The translations under genes and the position numbers were made by a program. Below, piece after piece: positions 19,737-64,000 of a DNA stretch of 64,000 nucleotides. The stretch's first letter is position 1. Every line of letters begins with the position of its first letter. The notes beneath the pieces are model-generated. The model did no database searches. It was not told where the DNA came from and saw only the letters and a program-made list of their open reading frames with translations. Source of the stretch: Candidatus Latescibacterota bacterium (lineage in GTDB: Bacteria; Latescibacterota; UBA2968; GCA-2709665); NCBI GenBank assembly GCA_963667175.2, contig CAXXXF010000003.1, positions 224,001-288,000 of the forward strand, read 5' to 3'.

Positions 19737-19760
19737 GTGAGCGGCCATTTGTGCGGTCTC

Positions 19761-45668: not shown

Positions 45669-46478
45669 ATGTTGACACGATTTCTGGTATCCGTATGCGC
45701 GGGACTCGTCTGGGCCGCCGCCGCATCGGCCGGCGAACTGACGAGCGGGTTGACCATCCGCGGAGGAAAGAACGCGCTTGCAGGCCTCAAGCTGGAGCGC
45801 GTGAACGACCCCGCCGAAGCCGACGGCACACTCACCATCCGCGTGTCGGTCGCGCGGGCGAAGGACCTGAAGGGGTACGGGTTGTCGCTCGAATACGACG
45901 CGGCGAAGTACGCGTTCGTGGAAGCCAGGGAGGCGGCCGGGAACCTGCTCGCGTCCGGCGCGGGCCGGCAGACGCTGTTTCTCTCGTCGGACCGGACGCC
46001 CGGCAGGGTGGACGTCAGCGCGTTGAAGGTGGACGGCCCGGGCGCCAGCGGCGAGGGCCGGCTGGCGGACCTTGTGTTCAGGACCGGCGGCACGCCCTCG
46101 GCGTCCGACTTCAGGGTCTCGGATGGCGTGCTGGTGGGGCTTGACGGCGCCCTCGACCTGCTGTCGCGCGTCGAGATCGGCAACCTGAAGCCACTGCCGG
46201 ACCGCTTCGGCCTGGACCAGAACGCGCCGAACCCGTTCAATCCCGCCACCGTGATCGGATATCAGCTCGCAGAGGCCGGCTCGGTCAGGCTGGCCGTGTA
46301 CAACCTGTTGGGACAGGAGGTGCGCGTGCTGGTGAACGAGACCATGGCGGCGGGATCCTTCACGGCCGCGTGGGACGGGACGGACGCGCTGGGCCGCGAC
46401 GTGGCCAGCGGCGTGTATCTGTATCGGATTCAGGCCGGGGACTTCTCCGCGTCGCGGCGCATGCTGCTGCTGAAATAG
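45669..46478 (+). CDS. secreted cohesin-like domain protein with C-terminal FlgD-Ig/T9SS-type sorting domain
   Basis: AAGGAGG RBS and signal peptide. LKGYGLSLEYDAAKYAFV...SGEGRLADLVFR is cohesin-like; LDQNAPNPFNPATVIGYQL..YNLLGQEVR..WDGTD..G..VASGVYLYRI..RRMLLLK is the sorting domain. Confidence 0.7.
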   Translation: MLTRFLVSVCAGLVWAAAASAGELTSGLTIRGGKNALAGLKLERVNDPAEADGTLTIRVSVARAKDLKGYGLSLEYDAAKYAFVEAREAAGNLLASGAGRQTLFLSSDRTPGRVDVSALKVDGPGASGEGRLADLVFRTGGTPSASDFRVSDGVLVGLDGALDLLSRVEIGNLKPLPDRFGLDQNAPNPFNPATVIGYQLAEAGSVRLAVYNLLGQEVRVLVNETMAAGSFTAAWDGTDALGRDVASGVYLYRIQAGDFSASRRMLLLK

Positions 46479-46635
46479 GGGCACCCTCACCCACCGGCCC
46501 CGTCTCCCAATGGAAGAAGGAAGAAGGAAGAAGGCCGCCCCGCGTCCACCGGAAAACGGCAGGGCCGGGCGATATCAATTCGCGGATGTAGAGTTTATCG
46601 AAGTGTTTTTCAATCGTATCAAGGAGGCGTGGGCT

Positions 46636-46785
46636 GTGTCCATCTTCAAACGAAATCCGGCGCTATCGGTGATCGGGCTTGCGGTGATCGCGTGCCTCGC
46701 CCTCGTCTGTTTCGCGCTCTGCGGACGATTCTGCGGGCGCGGGGCCCGGGGCGAATGTGAAAGTCGAGAGTCCCGGGAGCAATAG
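46636..46785 (+). CDS. small single-TM peptide (49 aa)
   Basis: AAGGAGG RBS 8 nt before GTG; hydrophobic stretch LSVIGLAVIACLALVCFAL. Confidence 0.35.
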   Translation: MSIFKRNPALSVIGLAVIACLALVCFALCGRFCGRGARGECESRESREQ

Positions 46786-46935
46786 CAGCGTCCAAACCAA
46801 ATCCGAACCACAAGGCGGCAATCCTTGGGGCCCGCCTGCTGCCGGCGGGTGAACCTGCGGAAAGGGGGATATCCCTCGGGAACAGAGTCGTGAAACCGTC
46901 GTCCATCGTTCATTCTGACGAAAGGAGCAACACGC

Positions 46936-47520
46936 ATGTATTCGACCAAGCAATTCACCGGCGTTGTCGCGGTTCTGCTGGCCATGGCCGCCACGCCGCT
47001 CTGGGGCCAGGAAATCGGATCGCGCGTTCGCGTGACAACGATGAACGGTCTGATGATCGGGACCGTTGAAAACAAGGGCTCGGATCAATTCAACCTCAAT
47101 CTGGAAGGCGGCATTTCCCGAACCGTCGCGTTCCGCGAAATTCAGGTGTTGGAGCTGAGCCTCGGAAAACGCAGCAATGCAAAGAAGGGATTCATGATCG
47201 GCGCCGGCGCCGGGGTGCTGGCTGGAGTATTGTACGGATTGGCGGTTTCCGACAATTGCAGCGATATCGCGGATGCCTTTGGGGGCAACGACCTCGGGTG
47301 CAAGGAAACCGGCGCGTCGACGATGGTGTTGGCCGCTGCGATATGGGGCGGGGTATTGGGTCTCGGTGGCGCGGGCATCGGCCACCGGCTGAAGTCCGAA
47401 TCATGGGAGGAGGTCAGGGTGCCGACGGCAAGTCGACGCTTTCAGGTCCGTCCCATGGTCGAACTGGCGTCTCTGAACGGAAACCGCCGCGCGCTGTTGG
47501 GCGCCCGCGTTCGCTTTTGA
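46936..47520 (+). CDS. secreted/membrane hypothetical protein
   Basis: AAGGAG RBS, signal peptide, two glycine-zipper-like hydrophobic helices, C-terminal strand ending in Phe. Confidence 0.7.
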   Translation: MYSTKQFTGVVAVLLAMAATPLWGQEIGSRVRVTTMNGLMIGTVENKGSDQFNLNLEGGISRTVAFREIQVLELSLGKRSNAKKGFMIGAGAGVLAGVLYGLAVSDNCSDIADAFGGNDLGCKETGASTMVLAAAIWGGVLGLGGAGIGHRLKSESWEEVRVPTASRRFQVRPMVELASLNGNRRALLGARVRF

Positions 47521-48567
47521 TGCGGCAGGCCAACGAAAACCAGCGTTCGGCGATCAGCCGTCAGCTTGAAGCAAAAGCGAACCAGCCATCCGCCCCGCTG
47601 ACCTCTCCCCCCGGCCCCGTAAAGGCAGTGGTCAGGAAAAGCAGTGGTTAGTGATCAGTGGTTAGAAAAAGGCGGTGAGACGGCGAAAACACCGGGCGTA
47701 TATCAATACGCGGATGCCAGATTTTATCGTAGGGCCGGCCGGCCGGTCGCCCCTACAATTGCAACGCCTGCGCTACGAAGGTCGGTAGCCGTCCGCCTTT
47801 GCCTTTCATCCCGTCCGACCTTGTAAGACCCGTTTTCTGGACGAATCGGGTTACGCAGGCTGAAGTCGACGACTGTCGCAGAATGCGTCACGTCGGTCCC
47901 CAACCTCCCAGGGTGGAAAGGCAGCGGTCAGCGAAAGGCGGTGAGACGGTAGACGTGAGAGGTAAGAGATTGCCCGCCTCGTGCGGTTTCATTTCTTGCC
48001 GGAGGCATATAGGAATAAACAATTCGGCAATGACGTCTTCTACCGTCTCCCGTCTCCCGTCTCCCGTCTTACGTCTCACCGCCGTCAGGCGACCTCTCCC
48101 CCCAACCTGCCTGCGCCTGCCTGTCCCGTTGGAGCGGCAGACAGGCCGAGTTCCGCTCGGCAGGCAGGCCCCCTCTCCCAGGGGGAAAAGCAGTGGTCAG
48201 TGGCCGGTGGTCAGTAAAGGCAGCGATCGGCGGTCAGCCGTCAGCTTGAAGCAAAACCAGGACACCTTGAGCGGATCACCGTTCCCCCCTTCTCGTGGGA
48301 AGGGGGAAAGGGGGTAGGTCTGGGAGGCGGTGAAAGGGAGAAAAAAACCAGGGTGTATATCAATTCGCGGCTGCCTGATTCTATTGTAGGGGCGACCGGC
48401 CGGTCGCCCCTACAGACGCAAGGCCGGTGGGGGGCGTTTTCGCAACCATCCATATAAATTCCGTTTTCTGAATGAGGGTAGCGTTACGCAGGCCGAAGCT
48501 GACAACTGTCGCAAAATGCAACATCTTTCTCGCACGCAAACAGCTCCGCATATAAGAGGATCTTGCC
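47521..48567. repeat. modular intergenic repeat block (heptamer tandems, REP hairpins, shared leader); relatives at 45360-45600, 51529-51774, 55237-55634, 59694-60212, 62928-63600
   Basis: Recurrent cagtggtcagtgg, cagccgtcagcttgaa, ccccctctccc..gggagagggg, gtaggggcg..cgcccctaca, cactccccccttggggggagtc and ccatataaattccgttttctgaa modules. Confidence 0.8.
48106..48168. mobile_element. nested 33+30-bp CCTG...CAGG micro-elements (second copy at 59898-59960)
   Basis: Inner 30 bp (48116-48145) within a 33-bp unit. Empty-site versions of the host hairpin (cccggccccctct) occur near 51621 and 55408. Confidence 0.75.
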
Positions 48568-51528
48568 ATGAACAGTCGAGGAAAAGTTGCCATCGGGTTG
48601 CTGATCGCGATGGGCGCGGTATTCGCGGGGGTTGGGTCCGTTTCCGCGCAGACCGCTGGGGACGCGGATTTTGACGACAGCGGCGAGGTGGGCTTTCAGG
48701 ACTTCCTGCTGTTTGCGGCGAAGTTCAATACCGCGAGGGGCGACGCCAATTACGACGCCAGGTTCGACCTGGACGACAGCGGCGCGGTGGGGTTTGCGGA
48801 TTTCCTCGCGTTCGCGCGGTTTTTCGGCGAGACTGTGCCCGTGCCTGCGCTGGCGCTGACCGGGATCGCGCCGTCGGAAGGGATGCCCGGAACGCTGATC
48901 GAGCTGGTGGGGCAATTTGACGCCAATACGGCGTATCAGGTGAAATTCGGCACGGTCTTGTTGCCGGTGTTCGCGCAAGACGCGGAGCGGATTACCGCCA
49001 TGGTGCCCGTGTTGGAAAGCGGGTCCGTGCCGGTGCTCGTGGTTGACCCGTCGGGCCGGGAATCTGATCCCATGTCGTTTGAGGTGCTGGCGCTCTCTGA
49101 ACCGCGGATGAACGTCGAGCAGTTGCAACAGACAGTGTCGGACGTCGGGGACGGCATCGGAAACGTGCTGGCGCCGGTGATTGACGCCGGTGTGTTTCCC
49201 AACGACGCGGACGCGGCGTTGTTCAACCAGGAAATGGATAAGCTGAACGCGGCGTGGGACATCCTCGGGCAGCGGATCGCGGCGCTGCCGCCGGAGGACG
49301 CGGCGCTGTTGACGCAACTTCTGGACAACAGCGGCGCGTTGGGGATTCTGGAGGGCCTGGGACAAATCGACTTAAGCGCGTCGAAGGTACCGGCGGAGAG
49401 CAGTTCGACGCATCAGATATTTTTTCGTGTGGATATCGTCAGTGCGCTCTTGGGCTATGCCGCCGACGTGACCATGGCATTGACGATAGCGAACGCGTTC
49501 TTCCCGGAACCGTTGTTCACGAAAGCCATGACCGCCGCACTGGGGGGGTTCAGCACGTTCATCGGTGTGGTGAAATCCGGAATTGACGCGGCCATACCAA
49601 CGGATTTGCAACGCGTCAGCAAAGTAGAGATAAATCCGACGCCGGTGCTGGTGGGGGGCGTATCCGACGTGGCGTTTTACGGGGAGTTCAAGACGGAGAG
49701 TAATTTGCTCGCTGAGCTGGGATCAGAGGGGGTTGGCAAGGGGATGGAAGAGATCGTGAAGGTCTTCATTCTCAGGAAGAAAGGCGAGAAGTTCCTGGAG
49801 GAGTTACAGGAGAACCCGGTGGTGTCCGACGCGGTCGACGAAATTGTCGGCTTTTTCTCGGGCATCCTCTCGAACGTCGGTTTTGGCGTGACGGGGTTGG
49901 AGAACCTCTTTAATAAAGTAGCGCTGCCGCGGGATGACGTGCGATTGGATATGTCGCTGTACCGTCTCAGCGCGCCAAGCATAATAAAGTGGCTAATACC
50001 GCCGTTCCCCGCCGAAGAGATTGACAAGATGTTGCGCGTTCTGGAAAGAGTCGGAATTGACGTGGTTTCCGAATCGGTGGAGGTCGTGGATCGTGACGAC
50101 GACGTGAATGAAGACGTGGCGGTGTATGATCCTGCAAAGGTTCAACTGACGGGAAAGACAGCGGGCGTGATGCGGCTGAAGATGCGGGCATTTCGGTTTG
50201 TGGAGCCGGGAGGCGAGTCGGGTGATGAGCCGGGAGAAGAAAACAGGAGTTTTTGGGGCCGTGTGTGGGATCGCGCGAAGCAAATCGCGGCAATTCCGTT
50301 GGACTTTCTGAAAAACCTTCATCCTATCTTTCGATTTTCCAATTCGATGGAGCGTCTGGATCCAGTGTACGTTGAATTTGCGGTGAAGGAGCCCGGGTCC
50401 GACGTCGAGGGACCCCTCGAGGTCGAGTCGATACGTAGACTGACCAACTTCAACAGTGGCAATGTCAAGGATTACCAATGGTCGCCGGACGGTCGTCATA
50501 TCGCATTCGATCTGGTTTTTTACGACGAACGCATCGAAAGAGACCGAGAGATCTACGTGGTTGGATTGGACGGGAGTAATCCTCGCAACCTGACCAACAG
50601 CGATTCCTTGGACACAGGTCTCGTTTGGTCTCCTGACAGCCGCCACATTGCCTTCTACTCCAACCGGGACGGCAATACGGAGATCTACCTGATAGGATCG
50701 GACGGGAGCGACCTGCGCAACCTGACCAACAATGACGCCCCGGACGGACATCCCTCGTGGTCGCCTGACGGGCGGCACATCGCCTTTACATCCAAACGCG
50801 ACGGCGACGGCGAGATCTACGTGATGCGTTCGGACGGGAGCAGGCTGCGCAACCTGAGGTACCTCCGCCTTAGCTCTGAATTCTCTCCCGTTTGGTCGCC
50901 GGACGGCCGGCACATCGCGTGCTCATCCTATCGCGACCGCAAACACGAGATCCGCGTGATAGGATCGGACGGGAGGAACCAGCGCAGATCGTCAAACAGC
51001 CACTACCCATTGTGGCCATTCTGGTCGCCGGACGGCAGTCATATCGCCTTCGAATTTTACAACGACCGCTCAAGAGATCGCGAGATTCGCATATTGAGAT
51101 TGGACCCGCACAAATGGGTCACAATGTACCAGTTTTCTAATTCGTTTATTCAACTCAGTTGGTCGCCGGACGGTAGTCATATCGCCTTCGTTAACAAAGC
51201 CACGAGAGGCAGCCGGGCGGGAACCTCTAGCATCAACGTAGCGAGATCGGACGGTAGCGGCAGGTTCAACCTGACAGAGAATGCTACCTCGAGAAACCAT
51301 TGGCCCGTCTGGTCGCCCGATGGCCGGCACATCGCATACGTCTCCCGAAGCGGTAGTTACTTTGCGATTCACATGATGAGGTCGGATGGGAGCGACCTGC
51401 GCAGACTGACCAGCTACGTTGCCTACGACCAGAGGCCCTCGTGGTCTCCTGATGGCCGGCACATCGCCTTCGGTTCCGAGCGCGACCGCGATCTCTACCT
51501 GATCACATTTAAGGGCGGCGGACAATAG
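48568..51528 (+). CDS. secreted dockerin-like/EF-hand + IPT/TIG-like + helical region + TolB/PD40 beta-propeller protein (array member 1)
   Basis: Signal peptide ...VSA|QT; paired ADFDDSGEVGFQDF / FDLDDSGAVGFADF loops; repeated WSPDG.HIA units. Confidence 0.8.
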   Translation: MNSRGKVAIGLLIAMGAVFAGVGSVSAQTAGDADFDDSGEVGFQDFLLFAAKFNTARGDANYDARFDLDDSGAVGFADFLAFARFFGETVPVPALALTGIAPSEGMPGTLIELVGQFDANTAYQVKFGTVLLPVFAQDAERITAMVPVLESGSVPVLVVDPSGRESDPMSFEVLALSEPRMNVEQLQQTVSDVGDGIGNVLAPVIDAGVFPNDADAALFNQEMDKLNAAWDILGQRIAALPPEDAALLTQLLDNSGALGILEGLGQIDLSASKVPAESSSTHQIFFRVDIVSALLGYAADVTMALTIANAFFPEPLFTKAMTAALGGFSTFIGVVKSGIDAAIPTDLQRVSKVEINPTPVLVGGVSDVAFYGEFKTESNLLAELGSEGVGKGMEEIVKVFILRKKGEKFLEELQENPVVSDAVDEIVGFFSGILSNVGFGVTGLENLFNKVALPRDDVRLDMSLYRLSAPSIIKWLIPPFPAEEIDKMLRVLERVGIDVVSESVEVVDRDDDVNEDVAVYDPAKVQLTGKTAGVMRLKMRAFRFVEPGGESGDEPGEENRSFWGRVWDRAKQIAAIPLDFLKNLHPIFRFSNSMERLDPVYVEFAVKEPGSDVEGPLEVESIRRLTNFNSGNVKDYQWSPDGRHIAFDLVFYDERIERDREIYVVGLDGSNPRNLTNSDSLDTGLVWSPDSRHIAFYSNRDGNTEIYLIGSDGSDLRNLTNNDAPDGHPSWSPDGRHIAFTSKRDGDGEIYVMRSDGSRLRNLRYLRLSSEFSPVWSPDGRHIACSSYRDRKHEIRVIGSDGRNQRRSSNSHYPLWPFWSPDGSHIAFEFYNDRSRDREIRILRLDPHKWVTMYQFSNSFIQLSWSPDGSHIAFVNKATRGSRAGTSSINVARSDGSGRFNLTENATSRNHWPVWSPDGRHIAYVSRSGSYFAIHMMRSDGSDLRRLTSYVAYDQRPSWSPDGRHIAFGSERDRDLYLITFKGGGQ

Positions 51529-51774
51529 CCGAGAAGCAGAAGGCAGCAATAAGCGGTCAGCATTCAGCCGTCAGCTTGAATCAAGAGTCAAACCTCCCAT
51601 CCGCCCCGCAGACCTCACCCCCCGGCCCCCTCTCCCAGAGGGAGAGGGGGAGCAGACAGCTTAAAGCAAAACCAGGACACCGCGAGCGGATCACCGTTCC
51701 CCCCTTCCCTCCGGGAAGGGGGATAGGGGGTAGGTCGCACGGAAACCGCTCCGCATACAAGAGGAGATCTCGCC

Positions 51775-54700
51775 ATGAACAGTAAAGGAAGATTTGTCAT
51801 CGGGTTGCTGATCGCGATGGGCGCGGTATTCGCGGGGGTTGGGTCCGTTTCCGCGCAGACCGCTGCGGACGCGGATTTCGACGACAGCGGCGAGGTGGGC
51901 TTTCAGGACTTCCTGCTGTTTGCGGCGAAGTTCAATACCGCGAGGGGCGACGCCAATTACGACGCCAGGTTCGACCTGGACGACAGCGGCGCGGTGGGGT
52001 TTGCGGATTTCCTCGCGTTCGCGGGTCTGTTCGGGCAGCCTGCGCCGCGAGGCAAGCCCCCGGTTGCGGACGCGGGAGCGTACCAGAGCGTGGACACGGG
52101 CGACGTGGTCACGCTCGACGGCTCGAACAGCAGCGACCCGGAAGGGCAGCCGCTGACCTTCGCGTGGCGTCAGATCGACGGGCCGCTCGTCGCGCTATCG
52201 GACGCAAGCGTTGCGCGTCCCACGTTTCGCACCGGCCAGGCCGGGCATTATACGTTCGAGCTTATCGTAAACAACGGCGCGGCTGAGAGCCTGCCCGATA
52301 CGGTTGCCGTCGACGCGGCGACGATCTCGGAGGCGGCGGTGTTTGCGGGCGGCCCCGACGCGTCGTTTACGTATAAGGAGACGTCGGGCGATCAGATGGT
52401 CTTTGCGGTGGGGTCGGGCGCGCCCGAGGTGCAGGTGGGCGCGGTGATGGTCAACACCGTGGATCCGTTCTTCCTGAAGAAGGTGACGCGCGTGGTCAGC
52501 CGGGATGCGGCCGAGCTGGTCGTCGAAACCGAAGACGCCGCACTCACCGACGTCGTGGAAGAGGCCTCGGTACGACAGACGCTCACGTTTCCGGATCCGG
52601 CGTCGAAGGTGGCCCTGATCGACCTTGTCAGCGACCCCAGGCAGGTGTGCACGGACGAGACGGAGGCGTTGTGCGCCACGGCTTCGAACATCAGCCTGTC
52701 TCCCAGAATCCATTTCGATATCAATATCGAGGACGGGGGCGTCGATAGCCTTGTCGTTGCGGCCGGGGTCGAGTTCAAGGCCGATTTCGAGTTCCAAATG
52801 GAAGCGGCCGCGGGCTTCAGCCGGGAGCGCGAAGTCGATCTGAAATTGGGTCCATTGGCAGAGAAGCTGAAGGGCGCCCTTAAGTTCGGTCAGAGTCTGT
52901 CCATCCCGGTAAACGTGACGCCCGAACTGGGCTTTGGTGTGAAAGGAAGCATCCAGGTGGCCGGCAAGTTCAAGGCCGGCGTTAACGTCAACAGAACCAT
53001 CAACGTGGGCATCAAGTACAAGGACGGCCAATTCCACAACTTCGGCACGGGGGACGACGGAGACGCGCAGGACGGGATCTCCCCTGAAATCGGCCTGTAC
53101 GGGAGCGTCAATCTGAGCGCCTACGCGTACGGGAGGCTCAACGTCGGGTTGGGCAAAGGCACCGGCAACTGGGAGGCCGGGGTGGGCGCAGTCAGTTTCG
53201 GACTGGTTCCGTACGTGGGATTTGACGCTGAAGCCAGCGCGACGTCCAGCCGGCGGCAACCGACCCTGGATTGGGCAATCAGCATGGGGGTCAACGCGGA
53301 AGTGAGTGTGAACGGCCCTTATGTCAGGTTTTTCAGCTTGTCACTCGAGACGTTTGCCAGAGATTGGGAATTTGCCCTGTTTCAGGTGACCCTCTCGAAT
53401 GGGAACGCGCCCGTGAGGACGGGACCGGTATTGGTGGACCTTAATCTGGAAGGCGTCACGTATCATGGCGGCGATTTATATGCGCTCTATGCGAAGGAAA
53501 ACGGCGGCAGGGTCTACGCGGAGCGACGGAACCCATGTGGTTCATGGGAATATCGGGAGCTGTTTGATCTTGCAACGGTGGAACATCTGACAGATCGAGA
53601 AAAGGAGCTGAACCGGCGTATCTTTTACGCGATGGGGATCGCCTCTGCCAGCCCCGGTCCGAGCACGAAGATCCTATACGTGGTTGGGCTGGACGACATG
53701 CCGGTCGGGGATGGCGTGAATAGCGTCCCGAGGCTGTATAAATACCAGAATCACAGGACGGAACAGGGATGGGAGGGATGGAAACAGGCTAACGTCTACC
53801 ATTTGTCCGAAGAAAATGGGTTCCCTGTGGGTATCGCCTACGATAACGAAGGGCACTTCTATGTCGTTGACCGCGAGACAAAAAAGGTCCACGTGTATTC
53901 GGAATCCGCAAAGGACGGCATGAACCTCACGTCGGTCAGGACCTTCGATCTGGACTCCGGGAATGGCATTCCGTACGGCATCGTGTACGGCGAAGACCGA
54001 ATCTACGTGGTGGATCGCGCCGGCGACAAGGTCTTTGCATACGCCCGTTCCGGCGAGCGCGTAACGGGCGCGGACTTCAGTCTGGATGACGACAACGGCG
54101 ATCCGTCCGGTATCGCGTATGCCAACGGCGGCTTCTACGTGGCGGATTCCGAAGACGGGATATTCTATGAATACGCGGGTACGGTGACAGTACTTTCAGT
54201 ACGCAGACTGACGAACAACGACGCCGGGGACAGTGGTCCCCAGTGGTCGCCTGACGGCCGGCAGATCGCCTTCAATACCGACCGCGACGACGGCAATTCT
54301 GAGATCTACGTGATGGAATCGGACGGGAGCGACCCGCGCAACCTGACCAACAATGACGCTTCGGACTTTCATCCCTCGTGGTCGCCTGACGGCCGTCAGA
54401 TCGCGTTCACCTCCTATCGCGACGGCGATTCTGAGATCTACGTGATGGGATCGGACGGGAGCGACCCGCGCAACCTGACCAACAACCACAGCGACGACGA
54501 CGAACCTTTTCCGGGGTGGTCTTCGGACGTTAATCCCTGGTGGTCTCCCGATGGCCGACAGATCGCCTTCAGATCCAGACGCACAGTTTTTGGCTATTAT
54601 GATCGCCGGCACCGGCCCTGGAATGTCTGGGTGATGGAATCGGACGGGAGCAACCCGCGCAGTATTTCCTATAACATTACACTGTGGGCCAACAGTTCAG

Positions 54701-55236
54701 GTTGGCCTTACCCCTGGTCGCCTGACGGCCGGCTTCTCGCGTTCACCGACAAAGACGACGAGCACGGCCATATCTACGTGACTGATTCGTATGGGAGCTT
54801 TCGCCGCGCACTGAACGGCGGCGCCTCCGTTCACGCCAGTAACTCTCATCCCTCGTGGTCGCCTGACGGCCGTTATATCGCCTTCCATTCCGACGATTGG
54901 GTGTACAGAGAAGGGGTGGAAATCTACGTGATTGGGCCGGATGGTCGCAACCCGTGCAACCTGACCAACAACAGCAGGAGGGCCTACGAACGCGATCCCT
55001 CGTGGTCGCCTGACGGCCGGTATATCGCGTTCACCTCCTATGGCGACGGCAACAGCGAGATCTACGTGATGGGATCGGACGGGAGCGACCCGCGCAACCT
55101 GACCAACAATGACGGTAATGACGGGTACCCCGTCTGGTCTCCCGATGGCCGGCGGATCGCGTTCATCTCCGATCGCGACGGCAACGTCGAGATCTACGTG
55201 ATCGATCTGCAGATCGTCAACGCAGGCGGGCAATAG
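51775..55236 (+). CDS. secreted dockerin-like + PKD-like + beta-rich + NHL-like + PD40 protein (array member 2)
   Basis: Same N-terminal ~88 aa; PVADAG..VTLDGSNSSDPEG..LTFAW.Q..GP (PKD-like); P.GI.Y....YVVD repeats; WSPDG repeats. Confidence 0.8.
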   Translation: MNSKGRFVIGLLIAMGAVFAGVGSVSAQTAADADFDDSGEVGFQDFLLFAAKFNTARGDANYDARFDLDDSGAVGFADFLAFAGLFGQPAPRGKPPVADAGAYQSVDTGDVVTLDGSNSSDPEGQPLTFAWRQIDGPLVALSDASVARPTFRTGQAGHYTFELIVNNGAAESLPDTVAVDAATISEAAVFAGGPDASFTYKETSGDQMVFAVGSGAPEVQVGAVMVNTVDPFFLKKVTRVVSRDAAELVVETEDAALTDVVEEASVRQTLTFPDPASKVALIDLVSDPRQVCTDETEALCATASNISLSPRIHFDINIEDGGVDSLVVAAGVEFKADFEFQMEAAAGFSREREVDLKLGPLAEKLKGALKFGQSLSIPVNVTPELGFGVKGSIQVAGKFKAGVNVNRTINVGIKYKDGQFHNFGTGDDGDAQDGISPEIGLYGSVNLSAYAYGRLNVGLGKGTGNWEAGVGAVSFGLVPYVGFDAEASATSSRRQPTLDWAISMGVNAEVSVNGPYVRFFSLSLETFARDWEFALFQVTLSNGNAPVRTGPVLVDLNLEGVTYHGGDLYALYAKENGGRVYAERRNPCGSWEYRELFDLATVEHLTDREKELNRRIFYAMGIASASPGPSTKILYVVGLDDMPVGDGVNSVPRLYKYQNHRTEQGWEGWKQANVYHLSEENGFPVGIAYDNEGHFYVVDRETKKVHVYSESAKDGMNLTSVRTFDLDSGNGIPYGIVYGEDRIYVVDRAGDKVFAYARSGERVTGADFSLDDDNGDPSGIAYANGGFYVADSEDGIFYEYAGTVTVLSVRRLTNNDAGDSGPQWSPDGRQIAFNTDRDDGNSEIYVMESDGSDPRNLTNNDASDFHPSWSPDGRQIAFTSYRDGDSEIYVMGSDGSDPRNLTNNHSDDDEPFPGWSSDVNPWWSPDGRQIAFRSRRTVFGYYDRRHRPWNVWVMESDGSNPRSISYNITLWANSSGWPYPWSPDGRLLAFTDKDDEHGHIYVTDSYGSFRRALNGGASVHASNSHPSWSPDGRYIAFHSDDWVYREGVEIYVIGPDGRNPCNLTNNSRRAYERDPSWSPDGRYIAFTSYGDGNSEIYVMGSDGSDPRNLTNNDGNDGYPVWSPDGRRIAFISDRDGNVEIYVIDLQIVNAGGQ

Positions 55237-55634: not shown

Positions 55635-58600
55635 ATGAAAAACAAAAGAAAATTCGTCATCGGGTTGCTGATCGCGATGGGCGCGGTATTCGCGGGGGTT
55701 GGGTCTGTCTCCGCGCAGACCGCTGCGGACGCGGATTTCGACGACAGCGGCGAGGTGGGCTTTCAGGACTTCCTGCTGTTTGCGGCGAAGTTCAATACCG
55801 CGAGGGGCGACGCCAATTACGACGCCAGGTTCGACCTGGACGACAGCGGCGACGTGGGGTTTGCGGACTTCCTCACGTTCGCGCGGTTTTTCGGCGAGAC
55901 TGTGCCCGTGCCTGCGCTGGCGCTGACCGGGATCGCGCCGTCGGAAGGGATGCCCGGAACGCTGATCGAGCTTGTGGGGCAATTTGACGCCAATACGGCG
56001 TATCAGGTGAAATTCGGCACGTTCTTGTTGCCGGTGTTCGCGCAAGACGCGGAGCGGATTACCGCCATGGTGCCCGTGTTGGAAAGCGGGTCCGTGCCGG
56101 TGCTCGTGGTTGACCCGTCGGGCCGGGAGTCTGAGCCCACGTCGTTTGAGGTGCTGGCGCTCCCCGAGCCGCGGATGAACCCCGAGCAACTGCAACAGGC
56201 GGTGTCGGGGGTCGGGGACGGCATCGGGAACGTGCTGGCGCCGTTGACCGCGCCGGACAGTCTGTTCAGCGCGGCGGACGCGGCGATGATCAAGGATGAA
56301 ATGGGCAAGCTCAACGCGGCGTGGGGCATCCTGGGGCAGCGGATCGAGGCGCTGCCGCCGGAGGACGCGGCGCTGTTGACGCATCTTCTGGACAACAGCG
56401 GCGCGTTGGGGATTCTGGAGGGTCTGGGAACAATCGACCTGAGCGCGTCGAAGGCGGTGGAGCTGGGCGCCGCCTTCCGTCATCAGAAGTTGTTCCAGGC
56501 GGACGTGGTGAGCTTTCTGATGGGGAACGCCAGCGCCGCGACTTCAGCAGCCACGTTGATCGCGGCGGTGGTTCCTGGCGGGCAGGCCTTACTCCCGATT
56601 CTGGCGGCCATCGACGCCGTCAGCGGCGTGACGAAAACGGTCATCGACGCGATCTTTCCAACGGATCTGGAGAACCTCAGGGTCGAAATATCTCCGACGC
56701 CGGTGGCGGTGGAGGGCGCGTCCGACGTGTCGTATTACGGGGACTTTGTCACGGAGAGCGACGCCATACGCGCGCTGGGGGACAAACTGCTGGAGGGCGC
56801 CGTAGAGGAACTGTTGGACGAATTCCTCAAGATACCGAAGGTGTCCGAGAAGGCGGCGGAGGAAATCGTCGGTTTTGTCACCGGCATCCTTACTTCTGCG
56901 GGTATGAAGGGATTCGATTGGGCCCTGCGCGGCGCGACGATAAGCCCCGCGCTGAAGGACGTGCCATTGGATATGTCGGTGTATCGACTCAGCATATTCG
57001 ACGTTCTGCAGGTCGTACCGACGTTGCCGGGCAAGGAGACGGCGGACGCGATCGAGTATCTGCTGGGAAAGGCCGGGATCGACGTGACGTTCTTCGATCC
57101 GGTGGTGGTCGAGAACGAGGCGGTGGCGGCGTACGACAAGCTGAATGCTCGGCTGACGGGAAAGACGGCGGGGGCAACGCGGCTGACGGTGCGGGCGATA
57201 CGATTTGTGGAGTGGGACTCCTGGTGGAATTGGCTCGGTATCTGTGTGTGGGAGACGGTCGGGCCCGTGTATCAAAATATCAACGTCGGGACGACGTCAA
57301 CCAGCCCACCCTTTGATCTGGATAGCGACAACACTTGGCCGCATGGGATCACGTATGTCAACAACCGGTTCTACGTGGTTGATGATCGGCATGATAAGGT
57401 TTTCGCGTATACGGTTTCGGGGCAGCGTGACGCGGCTTCGGAGTTCGATCTGAATGACGAAAACGGGTCTCCGAAAGGTATCACGTATGCCAACAACCGT
57501 TTCTACGTGATTGATAGTTGGCCTGATGATAAGGTTTTTGCGTATACGGTTTCGGGGCAGCGTGACGCGGCTTCGGAGTTCGATCTGAATGACGAAAACG
57601 GGTCTCCGAAAGGTATCACGTATGCCGACAACCGGTTCTACGTGGTTGATAGTTGGCATGATAAGGTCTTTGCGTATACGGTTTCGGGGCAGCGTGACGC
57701 GGCTTCGGACTTCGATCTGGATAGCGGAAGGGCATATCCGCGAGGTATGACGCATGACAACGATCAACCCGCCGGTATCACCTACGCGAACAACCGGTTC
57801 TACGTGGTTGATGATTATGATGCTAAGGTCTATGTGTATACGGTTTCGGGGCAGCGTGACGTGGCTTCGGAGTTCGATCTGAATAGCGACAGCCGTACTC
57901 CGCATGGGATTACGTATGCCAACGATCGATTCTACGTCGTTGATTATTCCGTGGAAAGGATCTTCGTGTACAAACATTCAGGCCAGTATAGAGCGAGACC
58001 GGACCTGGTTGCGCAATCTTCGACCAGTGAGGGTCTATTGACGCCTGGCCAATCATTCACCCTCTCCGCGACTGTAGAGAACGTCGGGGACGCGCAAGCG
58101 TCTTCCACAATGCTGCGCTACTATTACTCCGACGATTGGTCTATTTCGCAGAACGACACGCTTCTGGGGTCGGCTGCAGTGGGCGTTCTGAATCCATCGG
58201 ACAGGAGCCTTGTCAACGTAACGTTAACCGCGCCATCGGCAGTAGGTACGTATTACTACCGGGTATACGCAGACGTGGTTGATGGGGAAGAAATAACGTA
58301 TAACAACCCTTCGGTGGCATCGGTTGTCTCCGTATCTTCGGAGACGCCTGCAACCACGGGTTTTTCTATCGCTACCAACGTTCATCCAACCAGCATCACG
58401 TATGCCAACGACCGATTTTACGTGGCTGATTTGCTTAAAAGAAAAATCTTCGCGTACATGAGTTCGGGCGAGCGTGATGAGGCTTCGGACTTCGGGGTCA
58501 ATGTTGCTTCGTATGGTATCACGTATGCCAATGACCGATTCTTTGTCGCCGGTCCCGACACCGTCTATGCGTACACGGTCTCCGGTCAGCGAGATGCGGC

Positions 58601-59693
58601 TTCGGATCTGCCTTTCGGCAGTAATCGTTTGACGGGTATCACGTATGCCAACGACCGATTTTACGTCGTACATGACTATTCCGATAAGGCCATTGCGTAT
58701 ACGAGTTTGGGTCAGCGAGACAGTCGTTCAGACTTCAGTTTGCAATACGATGGACCGGCGGGAATCACCTATGCCAACGGGCAGTTCTACGTGGCCAACA
58801 ATGATCTGGGCGGCGGTTGGCAAAAACTCGAGGTCCATGCGTATGGAAGTTCCGGCGGGCGTGCCGCGGCTTCAGATTTCGTTCCGAGATATGGCCCGTT
58901 CTTTGACACCTTTTCCGGAGGTATCACGTATGCCAACGATCGGTTTTACATTGTTTCAGCGGGCAAAGTTGACAAGCTCGGCGACGAGGTAGTCCGTGCG
59001 TATTCAAGCTCCGGTGGGCGTCATTCAGCTTCAGACTTCAGGTTGGAGTTAACTCTTCCGAATGGCATCGCCTATGGCAACAACCGATTCTACGTCGCTG
59101 ACGACTCGCGCAGGGTACTTGTGTACACGAATTCGGGGACGCGTGACGCCGCCTCGGACTTTCTCGTCCGCTATGGTAATCCAACTGGCATCACGTATGC
59201 CAACAATCGACTCTACGTCGTTCATCGCAATTCCAGTACGGTCAGCGTGTATACGCGTTCGGGGCAGCTGGAATCGGATTCAGGCTTCCGTCTGAGTTCC
59301 AACAACGACAAACCGGCCGGTATCACGTACGGCAACCACCGATTCTACGTCATTGATGATAATGATAATAATACTCGTACCTTTGTTTACACGAGATCGG
59401 GAGAGTATTTGGAGACCTTCGATACGGATCGCGCCCTCGAGCCGGGCGGCATCACCTACGTCAACGGCAAACTCTACGTCCCCGACACGTATACGACCTA
59501 CGTGTACACGGATTTGGGACTTCGTGATGCAGATTCGGAGTTCACGCATGGTTTTCAGTCGACTGGAATCGCGTATACGGATAACCGGTTGTTTGTCGTC
59601 GGTCTGTCCTATGGTAAAGTTAGTCCATCGCGCGGTTGGAGTGATATTGCATTTGGCGGCATCGTGAGGGCGTACACGCTTTCCGGGCAATAG
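55635..59693 (+). CDS. secreted dockerin-like + IPT/TIG-like + NHL-like repeats + CARDB-like Ig + NHL-like repeats (array member 3)
   Basis: Same N-terminus; many GITYANNRFYVVD repeats; PDLV...PGQSFTLSATVENVG (CARDB-like). Confidence 0.8.
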   Translation: MKNKRKFVIGLLIAMGAVFAGVGSVSAQTAADADFDDSGEVGFQDFLLFAAKFNTARGDANYDARFDLDDSGDVGFADFLTFARFFGETVPVPALALTGIAPSEGMPGTLIELVGQFDANTAYQVKFGTFLLPVFAQDAERITAMVPVLESGSVPVLVVDPSGRESEPTSFEVLALPEPRMNPEQLQQAVSGVGDGIGNVLAPLTAPDSLFSAADAAMIKDEMGKLNAAWGILGQRIEALPPEDAALLTHLLDNSGALGILEGLGTIDLSASKAVELGAAFRHQKLFQADVVSFLMGNASAATSAATLIAAVVPGGQALLPILAAIDAVSGVTKTVIDAIFPTDLENLRVEISPTPVAVEGASDVSYYGDFVTESDAIRALGDKLLEGAVEELLDEFLKIPKVSEKAAEEIVGFVTGILTSAGMKGFDWALRGATISPALKDVPLDMSVYRLSIFDVLQVVPTLPGKETADAIEYLLGKAGIDVTFFDPVVVENEAVAAYDKLNARLTGKTAGATRLTVRAIRFVEWDSWWNWLGICVWETVGPVYQNINVGTTSTSPPFDLDSDNTWPHGITYVNNRFYVVDDRHDKVFAYTVSGQRDAASEFDLNDENGSPKGITYANNRFYVIDSWPDDKVFAYTVSGQRDAASEFDLNDENGSPKGITYADNRFYVVDSWHDKVFAYTVSGQRDAASDFDLDSGRAYPRGMTHDNDQPAGITYANNRFYVVDDYDAKVYVYTVSGQRDVASEFDLNSDSRTPHGITYANDRFYVVDYSVERIFVYKHSGQYRARPDLVAQSSTSEGLLTPGQSFTLSATVENVGDAQASSTMLRYYYSDDWSISQNDTLLGSAAVGVLNPSDRSLVNVTLTAPSAVGTYYYRVYADVVDGEEITYNNPSVASVVSVSSETPATTGFSIATNVHPTSITYANDRFYVADLLKRKIFAYMSSGERDEASDFGVNVASYGITYANDRFFVAGPDTVYAYTVSGQRDAASDLPFGSNRLTGITYANDRFYVVHDYSDKAIAYTSLGQRDSRSDFSLQYDGPAGITYANGQFYVANNDLGGGWQKLEVHAYGSSGGRAAASDFVPRYGPFFDTFSGGITYANDRFYIVSAGKVDKLGDEVVRAYSSSGGRHSASDFRLELTLPNGIAYGNNRFYVADDSRRVLVYTNSGTRDAASDFLVRYGNPTGITYANNRLYVVHRNSSTVSVYTRSGQLESDSGFRLSSNNDKPAGITYGNHRFYVIDDNDNNTRTFVYTRSGEYLETFDTDRALEPGGITYVNGKLYVPDTYTTYVYTDLGLRDADSEFTHGFQSTGIAYTDNRLFVVGLSYGKVSPSRGWSDIAFGGIVRAYTLSGQ

Positions 59694-60212: not shown

Positions 60213-62927
60213 ATGAACAGTAAAAGAAAAGTCGTCATCGGGTTGCTGATCGCGATGGGCGTTGTCTTCGCGGGGGTCGGGTCTGTTTCCGCGCAGACCG
60301 CTGCGGACGCGGATTTTGACGACAGCGGCGAGGTGGGGTTTCAGGACTTCCTGCTGTTTGCGGCGAAGTTCAATACCGCAAGGGGCGACGCGGATTACGA
60401 CGCCAGGTTCGACCTGGACGACAGCGGCGAGGTGGGGTTTGCGGATTTCCTCACGTTCGCGCGGTTTTTCGGCGAGACTGCGCCCGTGCCGGCGCTGGCG
60501 CTGACCGGGATCGCGCCGTCGGAAGGGATGCCCGGAACGCTGATCGAGCTTGTGGGGCAATTTGACGGCGATACGGCGTATCAGGTGAAATTCGGCACGG
60601 TTTTGTTCCCGGTGTTCGCGCAAGACGCGGAACGGATTACCGCCATGGTGCCCGTGTTGGAAAGCGGGTCCGTGCCGGTTCTCGTGGTTGACCCGTCGGG
60701 CCCGGAATCTGATCCCATGTCGTTTGAGGTGCTGGCGCTCCCTGAACCGCGGATGAACGTCCAGCAATTGCAACAGACCGTGTCGGACGTCGGGGCGGGT
60801 ATCGGGAATGCCCTGGCGCCGGTGATGGACGCCGGTGTGTTTCCCAGCGACGCGGACGCGGCGTTGTTCAGCCAGGAAATGGATAAGCTGAACGCGGCGT
60901 GGGGCGTCATCGGGCAGCGGATCGCGGCCCTGCCGCCGGAGGACGCCGCGCTGTTGACGCAACTTCTGGACAACAGCGGGGCGTTGGGCATTCTGGAGGG
61001 CCTCGGGAAAATCGATCTGAGCGCGTCGAAGGTACCGGCGGAGAGCAGTTTGACGCATCAGGTATTTTTTCGGGTGGATATCGTCAGTGCGCTCTTGGGC
61101 TATGCCAGTGAAGTGACCATGCTAATCACGATAGTTTCGGCGGTGGCGCCGGAACCGTTGTTCACGAAAGCCGCAGCCGGCGCACTGGGGGGTATAGGTA
61201 TATTAACCGGTACGTTGAAACTTGCAATTGACGCGGCCATTCCAACGGATTTGCAACGCGTCAGCAGAGTGGAGATAACTCCGACGCCGGTGCTGGTGGA
61301 GGGCGTATCCGACGTGGTGTTTTTCGGGGAGTTTAAGACGGAGAGTAATTTAGCCAGTGAGCTGGCGTCGCAGAAGATTGATGAGGGGATTACGACAATT
61401 TTGGAATTTGTTATCAAAAGGAAGATACCGGCAGCCAAGAAGCTGCTGGAAGATAGAGATAAAGGGATAGAGTCGCCGGCGAGCGAAGCGCTGGATGAAA
61501 TTGTCGGCTTTTTCTCGGGCATCTTCTCAGAGATCGGTATTGACGAGACGGGGTTGAATACCCTCTTGGAGAAAGTGGAACTGTCGCGCAATGACGTGCG
61601 ATTGGATATGTCGCTATACCGTCTCAGTGTGCCAAGCATAATAAAGTGGGGTATACCGATATTCCCCGCCGAAGAGATTGACAAGATGCTGGGCGTTCTG
61701 GAAAAAGTCGGAATTGACGTGGTTTCCGAATCGGTGGAGGTCGTGGACAGTCGGGACGTCGCAAATGAAGACGTGGCGGTGTATGATCCTGCAACGGTTC
61801 AACTGACGGGAAAGACAGCGGGCGTGATGCGGCTGAAGATGCGGGCATTTCGGTTTGTGGAGCCGGGAGGCGAGTCGGGTGATGAGCCGGGAGAAGAAAA
61901 AAAAGGACTTTTGGGCCGCCTGTGGGATCGCGCGAAGCAAATTGCGACAATTCCGTTGGACTTTCTGAAAAACCTTCATCCTATCTTTCGTTTTTTCAAT
62001 TCGATGGAGCGTCTGGATCCAGTGTACGTTGAATTTGCGGTGAAGGTGTCCGGCTCCGACGTCGAGGAACCCCTTGTGGTCGAGTCAATACGCAATCTGA
62101 CGCGAGGCCATGACGGCTTAGGACCCTCGTGGTCGCCCGATGGAAGGCGCATCGCCTTCTCATCCGAGCGTGGCGCCAACTACGAGATCTACGTGATGGG
62201 CTCAGACGGAAGCAATCCGCGCAGCCTTACCAACGCCATTGGAAGCGACATGGACCCCTCGTGGTCGCCCGATGGAAGGCACATCGCCTTCTCATCCGAG
62301 CGTGACGGCAACGACGAGATCTACGTGATGGGCTCAGACGGAAGCAATCCGCGCAACCTTACCAACGCCATTGGAAGCGACAGGTACCCCTCGTGGTCGC
62401 CCGATGGAAGGCACATCGCCTTCTCATCCACTCGCGACGGCAGATTGGAGATCTACGTGATGGGCTCAGACGGGAGCAATCCGCGCAGACTCACCAACCA
62501 CAGTGGAGGCGGCTGGGACCCCTCGTGGTCGCCCGATGGAAGGCACATTGCCTTCACATCCGGGGGTGATGTCAACTCCTTTTGGGAGTCCGAGATCTAC
62601 GTGATGGGCTCAGACGGGAGCAATCCGGGCAACCTTACCAACCAAAGTGGAATCGACATGGGCCCCTCGTGGTCGCCCGATGGAAGGCGCATCGCCTTCA
62701 CATCCGACAGTGGCGCCAACTACTACAACATCTACGTGATGGGCTCAGACGGAAGCAATCCGCGCAGCCTTACCAACGCCATTGGAAGCGACAATGACCC
62801 CAATGTAATGGACAGGTACCCCTCGTGGTCGCCCGATGGAAGGCACATCGCCTTCTCATCCTTACGCGACTTCGACTTTGAGGTCTTCCAGATCTACGTG
62901 ATCACCTTTCAGGGCGGCGGGCAATAG
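60213..62927 (+). CDS. secreted dockerin-like + IPT/TIG-like + helical region + PD40 protein (array member 4)
   Basis: Same N-terminus; middle region closely related to member 1; six PSWSPDGR.IAF repeats. Confidence 0.8.
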   Translation: MNSKRKVVIGLLIAMGVVFAGVGSVSAQTAADADFDDSGEVGFQDFLLFAAKFNTARGDADYDARFDLDDSGEVGFADFLTFARFFGETAPVPALALTGIAPSEGMPGTLIELVGQFDGDTAYQVKFGTVLFPVFAQDAERITAMVPVLESGSVPVLVVDPSGPESDPMSFEVLALPEPRMNVQQLQQTVSDVGAGIGNALAPVMDAGVFPSDADAALFSQEMDKLNAAWGVIGQRIAALPPEDAALLTQLLDNSGALGILEGLGKIDLSASKVPAESSLTHQVFFRVDIVSALLGYASEVTMLITIVSAVAPEPLFTKAAAGALGGIGILTGTLKLAIDAAIPTDLQRVSRVEITPTPVLVEGVSDVVFFGEFKTESNLASELASQKIDEGITTILEFVIKRKIPAAKKLLEDRDKGIESPASEALDEIVGFFSGIFSEIGIDETGLNTLLEKVELSRNDVRLDMSLYRLSVPSIIKWGIPIFPAEEIDKMLGVLEKVGIDVVSESVEVVDSRDVANEDVAVYDPATVQLTGKTAGVMRLKMRAFRFVEPGGESGDEPGEEKKGLLGRLWDRAKQIATIPLDFLKNLHPIFRFFNSMERLDPVYVEFAVKVSGSDVEEPLVVESIRNLTRGHDGLGPSWSPDGRRIAFSSERGANYEIYVMGSDGSNPRSLTNAIGSDMDPSWSPDGRHIAFSSERDGNDEIYVMGSDGSNPRNLTNAIGSDRYPSWSPDGRHIAFSSTRDGRLEIYVMGSDGSNPRRLTNHSGGGWDPSWSPDGRHIAFTSGGDVNSFWESEIYVMGSDGSNPGNLTNQSGIDMGPSWSPDGRRIAFTSDSGANYYNIYVMGSDGSNPRSLTNAIGSDNDPNVMDRYPSWSPDGRHIAFSSLRDFDFEVFQIYVITFQGGGQ

Positions 62928-63600
62928 CCGCGAAGCAGGGTGACCCTCATCGGGGGAAAGGCAGTGGTCGGGAAAAGCAGTGGCCAGTGATCAGTGGTCA
63001 GTAAAGGCAACGGCCAGTAAAGGCGGTGAGAGGGTAGACGGGAGATGATATGAATGCCTCGTGCGGTTTCATTGCTTGCCAAGGGCATAACGGGAAGGTC
63101 ATCCGGGCAAGGATCTCTTCTCCCGTCTAACGTCTTCCGTCTCACCGATTTCAGGTTTTTCATCTACCGTCCACATGCGGCTTACCGCCGTCGGGCGACC
63201 TCTCCCCCCGTCCCCCTCTCCCAGGGGGAGAGGGGGAGAACAGCAGGCGTTTCGCCATCAAGAGACTTCGCGTGTGGTTGTTGCGTCACTCGAAGCGTGT
63301 TCAGCAGGCGACAATTCCCCCCTTCCCCCCGGGAAGGGGGAAAGGGGGTAGGTCTGGGAGGCGGTGAGAGGGGGAGAAAACCGGGCGAGGGTATCGACTA
63401 TCACTCCCCCCTTGGGGGGGAGTCGGCAAGGCAAGGGCGCCAGCCCGAAGGCGCGCCGGTGGGGGGCGTTTCCGCAACCATCCATATAAATTCCGTTTTC
63501 TGAACACAGAGGTTGACGCAAGCCGTAACCGACAACTGTCGCAAAATGCGTCACCTGATCTCGCACGCAAACCGCTCTCCATACAATAGGAGGTCTCGCC

Positions 63601-64000
63601 ATGAATAATAAAAGAAAAGTCGTCATCGGGTTGCTGATCGCGATGGGCGTTGTCTTCGCGGGCGCCGGGTCCGTTTCCGCGCAGACCGCTGCGGACGCGG
63701 ATTTTGACGACAGCGGCGAGGTGGGCTTTCAGGACTTCCTGCTGTTTGCCGCGAAGTTCGGGCTGAGCCAGGGCGACGCGGATTACGACGCCAGGTTCGA
63801 CCTGGACGGCAGCGGCGCGGTGGGGTTTGCGGATTTCCTCGCGTTCGCGCGGCTGTTCGGCGAGACTGTGCCCGTGCCTGCGCTGGCGCTGACCGGGATC
63901 GCGCCGTCGGAAGGGATGCCCGGAACGCTGATCGAGCTGGTGGGGCAGTTCGACGCCGATACGGCGTATCAGGTGAAATTCGGCACGGTCTTGTTGCCGG
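63601..64000 (+). CDS. array member 5, truncated by the window end (absent from the ORF track)
   Basis: AGGAGG RBS; MNNKRKVVIGLLIAMGVVFAGAGSVSAQTAADADFDDSGEVGFQDFLLFAAKFGLSQGDADYDARFDLDGSG... open to nt 64000. Confidence 0.85.
   Translation, partial: MNNKRKVVIGLLIAMGVVFAGAGSVSAQTAADADFDDSGEVGFQDFLLFAAKFGLSQGDADYDARFDLDGSGAVGFADFLAFARLFGETVPVPALALTGIAPSEGMPGTLIELVGQFDADTAYQVKFGTVLLP

Follow-up and report, generated by a model that had tools for sequence, protein, structure and literature searches.

How might secreted proteins that bear no sorting signal of their own be held at the surface of a bacterium with two membranes? The question is raised by a stretch of 64,000 nucleotides from a Candidatus Latescibacterota genome (assembly GCA_963667175.2, contig CAXXXF010000003.1, positions 224,001 to 288,000; the whole of this stretch is hereafter called the window). 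Here, the gene for a small secreted protein, the adaptor, precedes an array of genes for large secreted proteins (A1 to A5) that share a calcium-binding module. A preliminary description regarded these genes as a cohesin/dockerin-like system in which the adaptor presents interchangeable binding proteins. The evidence set out below, which is computational, makes it probable that such adaptors anchor dockerin-tagged cargo at the cell surface, in a non-cellulosomal cohesin-dockerin display built on a secretion system of type IX (T9SS).

The computations show that the adaptor joins a cohesin to a C-terminal sorting domain (CTD) of T9SS type A. Its N terminus is signal-peptide-like, as judged by eye and from the N-terminal helix of the model. 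The AlphaFold2 model, derived from an alignment of 74 sequences, has a mean predicted local distance difference test score (pLDDT) of 82.7. When its beta-sandwich was compared with 48,161 solved chains using VIA-align, the top 20 matches were all cohesin-containing chains (Z 14.1 to 10.2), led by 5nrk_A (Z 14.1, root-mean-square deviation 3.0, 130 residues aligned); the best non-cohesin match over the domain reached Z 9.5, Foldseek was concordant, and structure comparison finds in the model the nine-stranded jelly roll of the cohesin fold. The tail scores 32.4 bits against the TIGR04183 cut-off of 23, and residues 178-269 resemble residues 1056-1157 of PorU (6za2, Z 10.0) and 684-776 of PorZ (5m11, Z 9.0). 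Thus, the preliminary description of a small secreted protein with a cohesin-like domain and a FlgD-Ig/T9SS-type tail is borne out in its fold as well as in its tail. The adaptor has 370 homologues, the best at 60-83% identity, which NCBI labels as Gemmatimonadota or Ca. Latescibacteria; a search for related loci returned almost exclusively CTD matches. Small cohesin-CTD adaptors contain a single cohesin, measure 270-380 aa and occur in several copies per genome.

The module shared by the array proteins (DFDDSGEVGFQDF...DLDDSG.VGFADF) is present in doubled form at residues 34-87 of all five open reading frames (ORFs), directly after the signal peptide. By its sequence, it is a symmetric type II-like dockerin, so that the duplicated loops had been read correctly. 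A profile of 43 modules compared with PDB sequences placed three type II dockerins first (2y3n_B, 4wi0_B and 4u3s_B, E 1.5e-12 to 1.4e-10); calcineurin and calmodulin chains followed at E 1.2e-6 and worse. Each module comprises two 12-residue calcium loops with Asp or Asn at positions 1, 3, 5 and 12 and a helix after each; in the model of a paralogue, the dockerin helices lie at 170-178 and 203-212. Over 83 distinct full modules, Asp occupies positions 1 and 12 in 100% of both repeats and Asp or Asn position 3 in 98-99%, while Phe is found at position 10 in 90% and 87%, and at position 20 in 86% and 96%, of the first and second repeat. These two positions correspond to Met17/Met50 and Phe27/Phe60 of the 2y3n dockerin (BcDocCel48), where double mutants abolish cohesin binding and the symmetry of the repeats results in dual-mode binding (PMC8063739). 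For one pair, the adaptor cohesin (28-175) with the A1 dockerin, complex prediction scored 0.05 and 0.03 where the mark is 0.32, with the controls not folded; this counts neither for nor against the pairing. A GC-type dockerin (model NF041540, presumably, from its name, a terminal dockerin ending in Gly-Cys) was considered as an identity and rejected: matches at E<=0.1 are found for 39 of the 43 modules (a single bit score, 19.5, compares with a cut-off of 29), but none of the 49 dockerin ORFs of the genome ends in GC, and 23 of the modules are N-terminal.

As had been proposed, the four complete array proteins combine this module with propellers and nothing that would sort them. They match PD40 and/or NHL in Pfam, plus PKD, TIG or CARDB; neither a CTD nor a C-terminal membrane segment was found in them, and the Pfam scan called no catalytic family of carbohydrate-active enzymes and no glycoside hydrolase. 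Matches to Pectate_lyase22, positioned on the propellers, are below cut-off (best E 2.5e-6). A5 runs past the end of the window to position 291404 of the contig (G000:C3:291404; full length 1267 aa), and the array continues beyond it, with six tandem paralogues in all and a seventh dockerin protein (A6 and A7 lying outside). The seventh appears to carry a divergent copy of a second class of cohesin (see below), in an alignment that includes the dockerin and whose score is thereby inflated. Over the first 91 residues, A2 is 82-89% identical to A1, A3, A4 and A5; from A1 (89% over this stretch), it is then unrelated up to the propeller. A TIG domain and an uncharacterized region (about 175-550), the stalk, are common to five of the six paralogues, and the C-terminal heads differ. 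The stalk (49090-50397 of the window in A1) has no Pfam family and no usable match in the ESM Atlas; 27 homologues were found among 8,000 candidates scored, with LRR, WD40, PD40, NHL or vWA heads, and the region is present in 2 of 61 genomes. It contains a hydrophobic helical stretch near residues 300-320. Closely similar N termini, differing heads and the rarity of the stalk elsewhere argue for a recent local expansion with swapped heads; such an array would exchange binding heads on a constant dockerin-stalk base. Repeated non-coding elements are shared upstream of the genes at 48568, 51775, 55635, 60213 and 63601. Metagenome contigs show them at high depth, which makes it probable that they are dispersed repeats; they could drive recombination of the array. 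Scans for promoters and terminators did no better than chance, and long inverted repeats were looked for and not found. The adaptor gene is not immediately beside the array: a 194-aa ORF and about 2.1 kb separate them. This ORF matches no Pfam or NCBIfam family and has one homologue among the fetched loci, located about 1 kb from a cohesin-CTD gene (locus L193).

Table 1. Features of the window and of the secretion machinery encoded elsewhere in the source genome (positions are those of the window unless a contig of the source genome, G000, is given)
Feature	Position	Strand	Remarks
Outer-membrane beta-barrel, 217 aa, OMP_b-brl_2	44495..45148	+	probably not part of the system
Adaptor, 269 aa: signal peptide - cohesin - T9SS type A CTD	45669..46478	+	ORF, fold model, family scan
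Cohesin domain of adaptor, residues 36-176	45774..46196	+	AlphaFold2 model, structure match
T9SS type A CTD of adaptor (FlgD_ig-like), residues 178-269	46200..46475	+	TIGR04183, structure match
Secreted ORF, 194 aa, function unassigned, between adaptor and array	46936..47520	+	membership uncertain
A1, 986 aa: signal peptide - dockerin - TIG - uncharacterized stalk (175-610) - PD40 propeller	48568..51528	+	
Dockerin of A1, residues 34-87	48667..48828	+	calcium ligands at 1/3/5/12 of the loops; both repeats have Phe at 10 and 20
A2, 1153 aa: signal peptide - dockerin - PKD - different middle - NHL-like - PD40	51775..55236	+	dockerin 51874-52035
A3, 1352 aa: signal peptide - dockerin - TIG - stalk - NHL-like - CARDB - NHL-like	55635..59693	+	dockerin 55734-55895
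A4, 904 aa: signal peptide - dockerin - TIG - stalk - PD40	60213..62927	+	dockerin 60312-60473
A5, N-terminal part: signal peptide - dockerin - TIG - stalk - NHL-like/CARDB	63601..64000	+	dockerin 63700-63861
SprA	G000:C5:38871-45095		
PorU-like peptidase	G000:C2:223567-229470		right after polysaccharide biosynthesis cluster
PorV	G000:C2:244095-245138		

The preliminary description took this locus as the unit of the system, with propellers in the place of enzymes. The latter is true of the window only, and the former gives way to a genome-wide tag served by four cohesin-CTD carriers. A profile search of the source genome (5.5 Mb, 95% complete) returned 49 dockerin ORFs, with the module at the N terminus in 23, at the C terminus in 23 and internal in 3. 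A hydrophobicity heuristic (not SignalP) finds a signal-peptide-like core in 47 of them, one doubtful, and a C-terminal membrane segment in none. CTDs occur in 14 ORFs, none of which has a dockerin as well. By these computations, about 50 secreted proteins of this organism carry one dockerin at either end and no CTD. Among the 45 dockerin ORFs scanned for families are two heparinase II/III-like lyases, two subtilases, one M10 peptidase and seven FGE-sulfatase-like proteins, along with HmuY, Cache, LRR, WD40, NHL, FN3 and ASPIC/UnbV proteins; 12 of the 45 have no Pfam family, and none of the 45 matches a glycoside hydrolase family at E<=1e-4. A second cargo array, of five tandem dockerin-FGE-sulfatase-like genes, lies at G000:C4:356861-371808 (L093), and the same array is seen in genome G009 (L196).

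T9SS components that would export and process the adaptor are encoded by the host. Translocon, shuttle and sortase are all present: SprA (TIGR04189, 638 bits against a cut-off of 200), PorV-family barrels (PorV_fam, 226 bits against 90) and a PorU-like C25 peptidase, which is over the cut-off for Peptidase_C25 and under that of the PorU equivalog (296 against 420). The peptidase ends in a FlgD_ig-type tail like that of the adaptor, and we therefore take this tail to be the T9SS CTD of the organism, in line with the T9SS-type tail initially claimed. A search for ShlB, in which no control passed the cut-off, was blank. Secretins were not found in the source genome, in 14 of 14 congeners or in 21 of 21 genomes of genus g6, the control being positive in 6 of 14; they are present in 18 of the 61 genomes searched. 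The co-occurrence of SprA, PorV and a PorU-like enzyme outside Bacteroidota, with GldM and PorP undetected (see below), possibly denotes a T9SS with a different energy source.

Both partners are widespread, and their genes tend to be linked. Dockerin modules and SprA are found in 61 of 61 genomes and the cohesin in 60, with dockerin matches in the order ranging from 23 to at least 103 per genome; across the phylum, dockerins occur in 141 of 153 genomes and cohesins in 130. Nearly all CTD genes of five single-contig genomes were considered: a CTD-less dockerin gene is no more than 1 kb away from 13 of the 18 genes for small cohesin-CTD proteins, and from 5 of the 54 remaining CTD genes (nominal p 7e-7). 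The genetic link suggested by the window thus recurs in relatives. The comparison excluded seven giant proteins described below and one cohesin-only ORF; one PF13860 match (G029:5025671) was missed by the CTD profile. The unlinked copies number exactly one per genome, and in all fetched loci taken together, adaptor and dockerin genes share a strand in 16 of the 18 linked cases. A tree of 62 cohesins places the window copy, flagged as a long branch, in a group of 15 extra copies (support 97/90); for 13 of these, a dockerin gene is at most 1 kb away. In family f2, linked copies nest among f2 sequences, apart from the linked copies of f1; this grouping suggests that the linkage of adaptor genes to dockerin genes may have arisen more than once. 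A solitary cohesin-CTD gene lies directly downstream of hemA-hemC-hemD in two families (G000:C16:305996-306838, L117; 29 of 40 cohesin-centred loci).

How would the display operate? In the most likely scheme, Sec would take both adaptor and cargo across the inner membrane, the adaptor would then pass SprA on PorV, and the PorU-like enzyme would remove the CTD. The same enzyme may, as with type A cargo, link the cohesin to a glycolipid of the surface; such cargo is either released or linked to surface lipopolysaccharide (PMC10994853). Calcium-loaded dockerins would bind the cohesin through Phe10 and Phe20, in either orientation. With the dockerin plugged into the cohesin in this way, any tagged protein, be it a propeller, an LRR protein, a lyase or a protease, could be held at the surface.

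It is tempting, if doubtful, to go one step further and view the dockerin as a type IX export tag acting in trans, with CTD-less cargo riding the adaptor through SprA and staying anchored. Cohesin-dockerin bonds are unusually strong under force. T9SS substrates are inferred to be extracted CTD-first with their carrier by energy input (PMC10994853). On these two grounds, cargo could ride behind its adaptor, and of the ways in which CTD-less cargo might pass the outer membrane this is the one we favour. The distribution of the two tags, counted with independent Pfam models in 105 genomes at least 90% complete, fits this idea, as does the absence of secretin matches noted above. The 51 genomes of the dockerin-rich families f1, f2 and f4 have 18 to at least 55 dockerin matches (median 40) and 6-34 CTD matches (median 15), whereas the 54 genomes of family f3, in the same class, have 2-22 dockerin matches (median 9) and, in 53 of them, at least 47 CTD matches. 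Dockerin and CTD counts thus trade off across the class, in what is essentially one phylogenetic contrast. On the trans-acting hypothesis, one branch may possibly have swapped most of its in-cis CTDs for a plug read by few adaptors. The direct test of a tag swap within cargo families is weak: ASPIC/UnbV homologues in f3 have a CTD in 2 of 30 cases (the two best-scoring), a dockerin in none and neither tag in 28 (one of them cut off), and heparinase homologues have a dockerin in 11 of 102 and a CTD in none, those outside the lineage having no tag.

Several observations weigh against the display model. The search with family models that the preliminary description proposed gave a divided answer: the window's own adaptor does not match Pfam Cohesin (PF00963) and none of the five array modules in the window matches Dockerin_1 (PF00404), whereas their paralogues match both. 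Thus, two adaptor paralogues pass the PF00963 cut-off (40.5 and 30.1 bits), 59 of the 74 aligned homologues match it at E<=0.1, and 13 of 34 genome matches to PF00404 are over cut-off. The five genomes of the 1-kb comparison are kin, so that its p value overstates the case. On a 20-kb scale there is no enrichment: a dockerin gene occurs in 13 of the 40 loci centred on a cohesin, in 5 of 20 antipode loci and in 5 of 20 loci around other CTD genes. Those 40 loci had been chosen as best matches, and 29 represent the solitary gene next to hemA-hemC-hemD; one antipode control fell on a giant dockerin-cohesin-CTD locus. Four cohesin-CTD carriers would have to serve 49 dockerin cargoes in the source genome. 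GldM was found neither in the source genome nor in the 61 genomes, in a search where no control genome passed the cut-off, and PorP was not found in a search likewise lacking a control over cut-off. The partition of the tags is imperfect, with one CTD-dockerin ORF in genome G016, a PF00404 match, missed by the dockerin profile, inside a 732-aa CTD protein of G007, and an N-terminal CTD-like FlgD_ig domain followed by a dockerin in P0292, P0295-P0297 and L227:9342-10376. Finally, 91 of the 102 heparinase homologues have neither tag, and such enzymes may therefore simply be periplasmic. As a separate matter, four of the FlgD_ig-then-dockerin proteins next carry the stalk of the window array.

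One alternative, which we consider unlikely, is the following: the modules do pair, and the cargo is periplasmic or released by vesicles or lysis, with the second class of cohesins organizing periplasmic complexes and the CTD adaptors mainly serving the giant protein. The cargo does lack a CTD, secretins were not found in the source genome or its genus, the relatives of the heparinase and ASPIC/UnbV cargoes mostly have no tag at all, and PD40 propellers resemble periplasmic TolB. However, a periplasmic location leaves unexplained why genes for CTD-bearing cohesins were repeatedly duplicated beside cargo genes, and why dockerin and CTD counts are inversely related.

A different emphasis results from the giant protein itself, an X-dockerin-cohesin-CTD polypeptide and thus in principle the single exception, in the source genome, to the separation of dockerin and CTD. 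A frameshift within a G-rich run divides its gene, which lies on contig C15. Because it is intact in relatives, at about 1,200-1,800 aa, the frameshift is possibly an assembly error. Nine giant proteins of relatives unite dockerin, cohesin and CTD in one chain, which amounts to Rosetta stone evidence for the pairing. The N-terminal 1,300 aa match no Pfam family. At the locus of the giant gene (L108, G000:C15:370991-386409), a paralogue with a dockerin and neither cohesin nor CTD lies upstream, and a gene for a 523-aa CTD protein downstream. The second cohesin class is a domain of about 150 aa that immediately precedes the dockerin in 36 of the 93 segments compared; it models as a cohesin (Z 15.2, root-mean-square deviation 2.5, 132 residues aligned), and profile comparison of the two classes gives a probability of 5.5%, so that their putative kinship rests on structure only. 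Broken second-class cohesin-dockerin tails are seen at G000:C4:149451-151553, with a frameshift inside the dockerin, and at 158123-158530, a 136-aa fragment. Conserved giants of 1500-1800 aa, and cargo with a second-class cohesin before the dockerin, could chain into a branched coat as part of the surface display. There is also a small chance that the main function is structural: the giant would polymerize head to tail into an S-layer-like coat, with the small adaptors serving as caps or spacers and the cargo as mere decoration. The frequency of the second class and the presence of the giant in all five closely examined genomes plus G009 and G017, often in two copies, speak for such a lattice. 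But no cargo gene is found at 1 kb or less from any of seven giants, the present assembly has a frameshift in the giant, and the proposal is compatible with surface display by adaptors, to which it adds only the lattice, a component to which our analysis lends no support. Very improbable is the view that the module is an EF-hand-like calcium stabilizer and the cohesin fold a spacer or lectin-like sandwich, with no mutual binding: all 43 modules do match EF-hand_1 at E<=0.1 (36 match Dockerin_1) and pilin domains, too, give scores with cohesin-like folds (Z up to 11.5), but dockerins lead calcineurin and calmodulin chains among the PDB matches by at least four orders of magnitude, the positions critical to binding are conserved, and the linkage is specific to cohesin-bearing CTD genes.

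Other genes of the window deserve mention. The outer-membrane barrel upstream of the adaptor, which the preliminary description offered as a possible partner, was rejected as a conserved one: it has homologues in only two fetched loci, the cohesin-centred L187 and the control locus L210. Four paralogous proteins of 1,100-1,200 aa with PQQ_2/FG-GAP propellers are encoded at 4635-14712 and 25710-29357, near three DUF6785 membrane genes (15658-19864 and 33675-35798), two of which also match DUF6784. A GmrSD restriction gene in a stretch of low G+C content (about 50%; 22134-24260) and a DUF499 ATPase gene at the window start (143-3067) may each belong to a defence island. Tandem TPR proteins, the first also matching GWxTD, are encoded on the minus strand at 35967-38012 and about 38178-40265, and another gene of similar appearance lies at G000:C3:301960-304602. 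A sponge metagenome run contains near-identical pieces, including 835 bases with six differences over most of the adaptor gene; this run is perhaps not independent of the source. No RNA run was among the listed data sets that contain the sequence. The bacterium is probably sponge-dwelling.

If the display is real, it offers the repeat proteins of sponge symbionts a route to reach, and stay on, the surface: a 54-residue plug that can be placed on any protein and is used by one whole order. Should the adaptor also carry cargo through SprA, T9SS targeting could be supplied in trans, and hosts with a T9SS would gain, in the cohesin-CTD adaptor, a simple tool for display. Export in trans aside, the findings would carry cohesin-dockerin assembly of cellulosome scale over to diderms (more than 100 dockerins in some genomes), with cargo that is mostly non-catalytic.

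We found no paper on dockerin or cohesin, or on type IX secretion, under the word stem Latescibacter, none that combines sponge and dockerin, and no report of T9SS export in trans. By term search, dockerin, cohesin and secretion are absent from the main text of a paper on sponge Latescibacterota (PMC12993501), dockerin and cohesin from that of a Latescibacterota genome paper (PMC4454575), and the phylum from a survey of cellulosomes (PMC11557425). The cargo types WD40, NHL, LRR and ASPIC/UnbV match the eukaryote-like repeat proteins of sponge symbionts (PMC3909097, PMC12993501); poribacterial WD40 proteins carry TIGR04183, and their export route was left open (PMC3909097). With T9SS type A the present system has in common the CTD, SprA, barrels of the PorV family and a C25 peptidase that is PorU-like and itself bears a CTD. 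Known T9SS substrates carry the CTD in cis, in contrast to the cargo described here, and the type A cargo and type B carrier system has been described for Bacteroidota (PMC10994853).

A cellulosome identity was considered and rejected. One full cohesin per chain is found in the source genome and fetched loci, a few having an extra partial repeat, and the lack of a tandem-cohesin scaffoldin and of glycoside hydrolase cargo argues that this is not a cellulosome. Closer in architecture are the clostridial anchoring proteins SdbA, OlpA, OlpC and ScaE, which have one cohesin and an SLH or sortase anchor in a Gram-positive wall; they too combine a single cohesin with a surface anchor, and 2bm3, 3ul4, 4dh2 and 2zf9 are among the structural matches. 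Clostridial cellulosome cargo gets outside by Sec alone, whereas here an outer membrane separates cargo and anchor. The BcCohScaA-DocCel48 complex of Bacteroides (Pseudobacteroides) cellulosolvens (2y3n), the best sequence match (E 1.5e-12), has in common with our modules the symmetric repeats, the absence of an X module, the hydrophobic nature of positions 10 and 20 and a type II-like dockerin directly on the cargo (PMC8063739). It differs in having Met rather than Phe at position 10, and our system further differs in its cohesin (about 13% identity), its lack of glycoside hydrolase cargo and its diderm host. In Chlorobium chlorochromatii, a diderm symbiont, Cag_2037 and Cag_2038 have been put forward as a non-cellulosomal cohesin-dockerin pair, proposed to be an adhesin tether (bioRxiv 10.64898/2026.03.19.712371); that system consists of one pair and is linked to a type I secretion system, with no CTD adaptor and no genome-wide tag. 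The nearest precedent is Ca. Stygibacter (Cloacimonadota), for which a CTD-anchored cohesin with dockerin enzymes has already been proposed (PMC8542988). As here, the proposal was made from genomes alone and joins a CTD-bearing cohesin protein for surface attachment to dockerin enzymes with signal peptides, S8 peptidases included. There, however, a single scaffoldin of 3,755 aa with tandem cohesins and carbohydrate-binding modules would gather a handful of C-terminal dockerins (PMC8542988), whereas the system described in this study has single-cohesin adaptors, a giant protein, and, per genome, 23 to at least 103 mostly non-catalytic cargoes with the dockerin at either the N or the C terminus.

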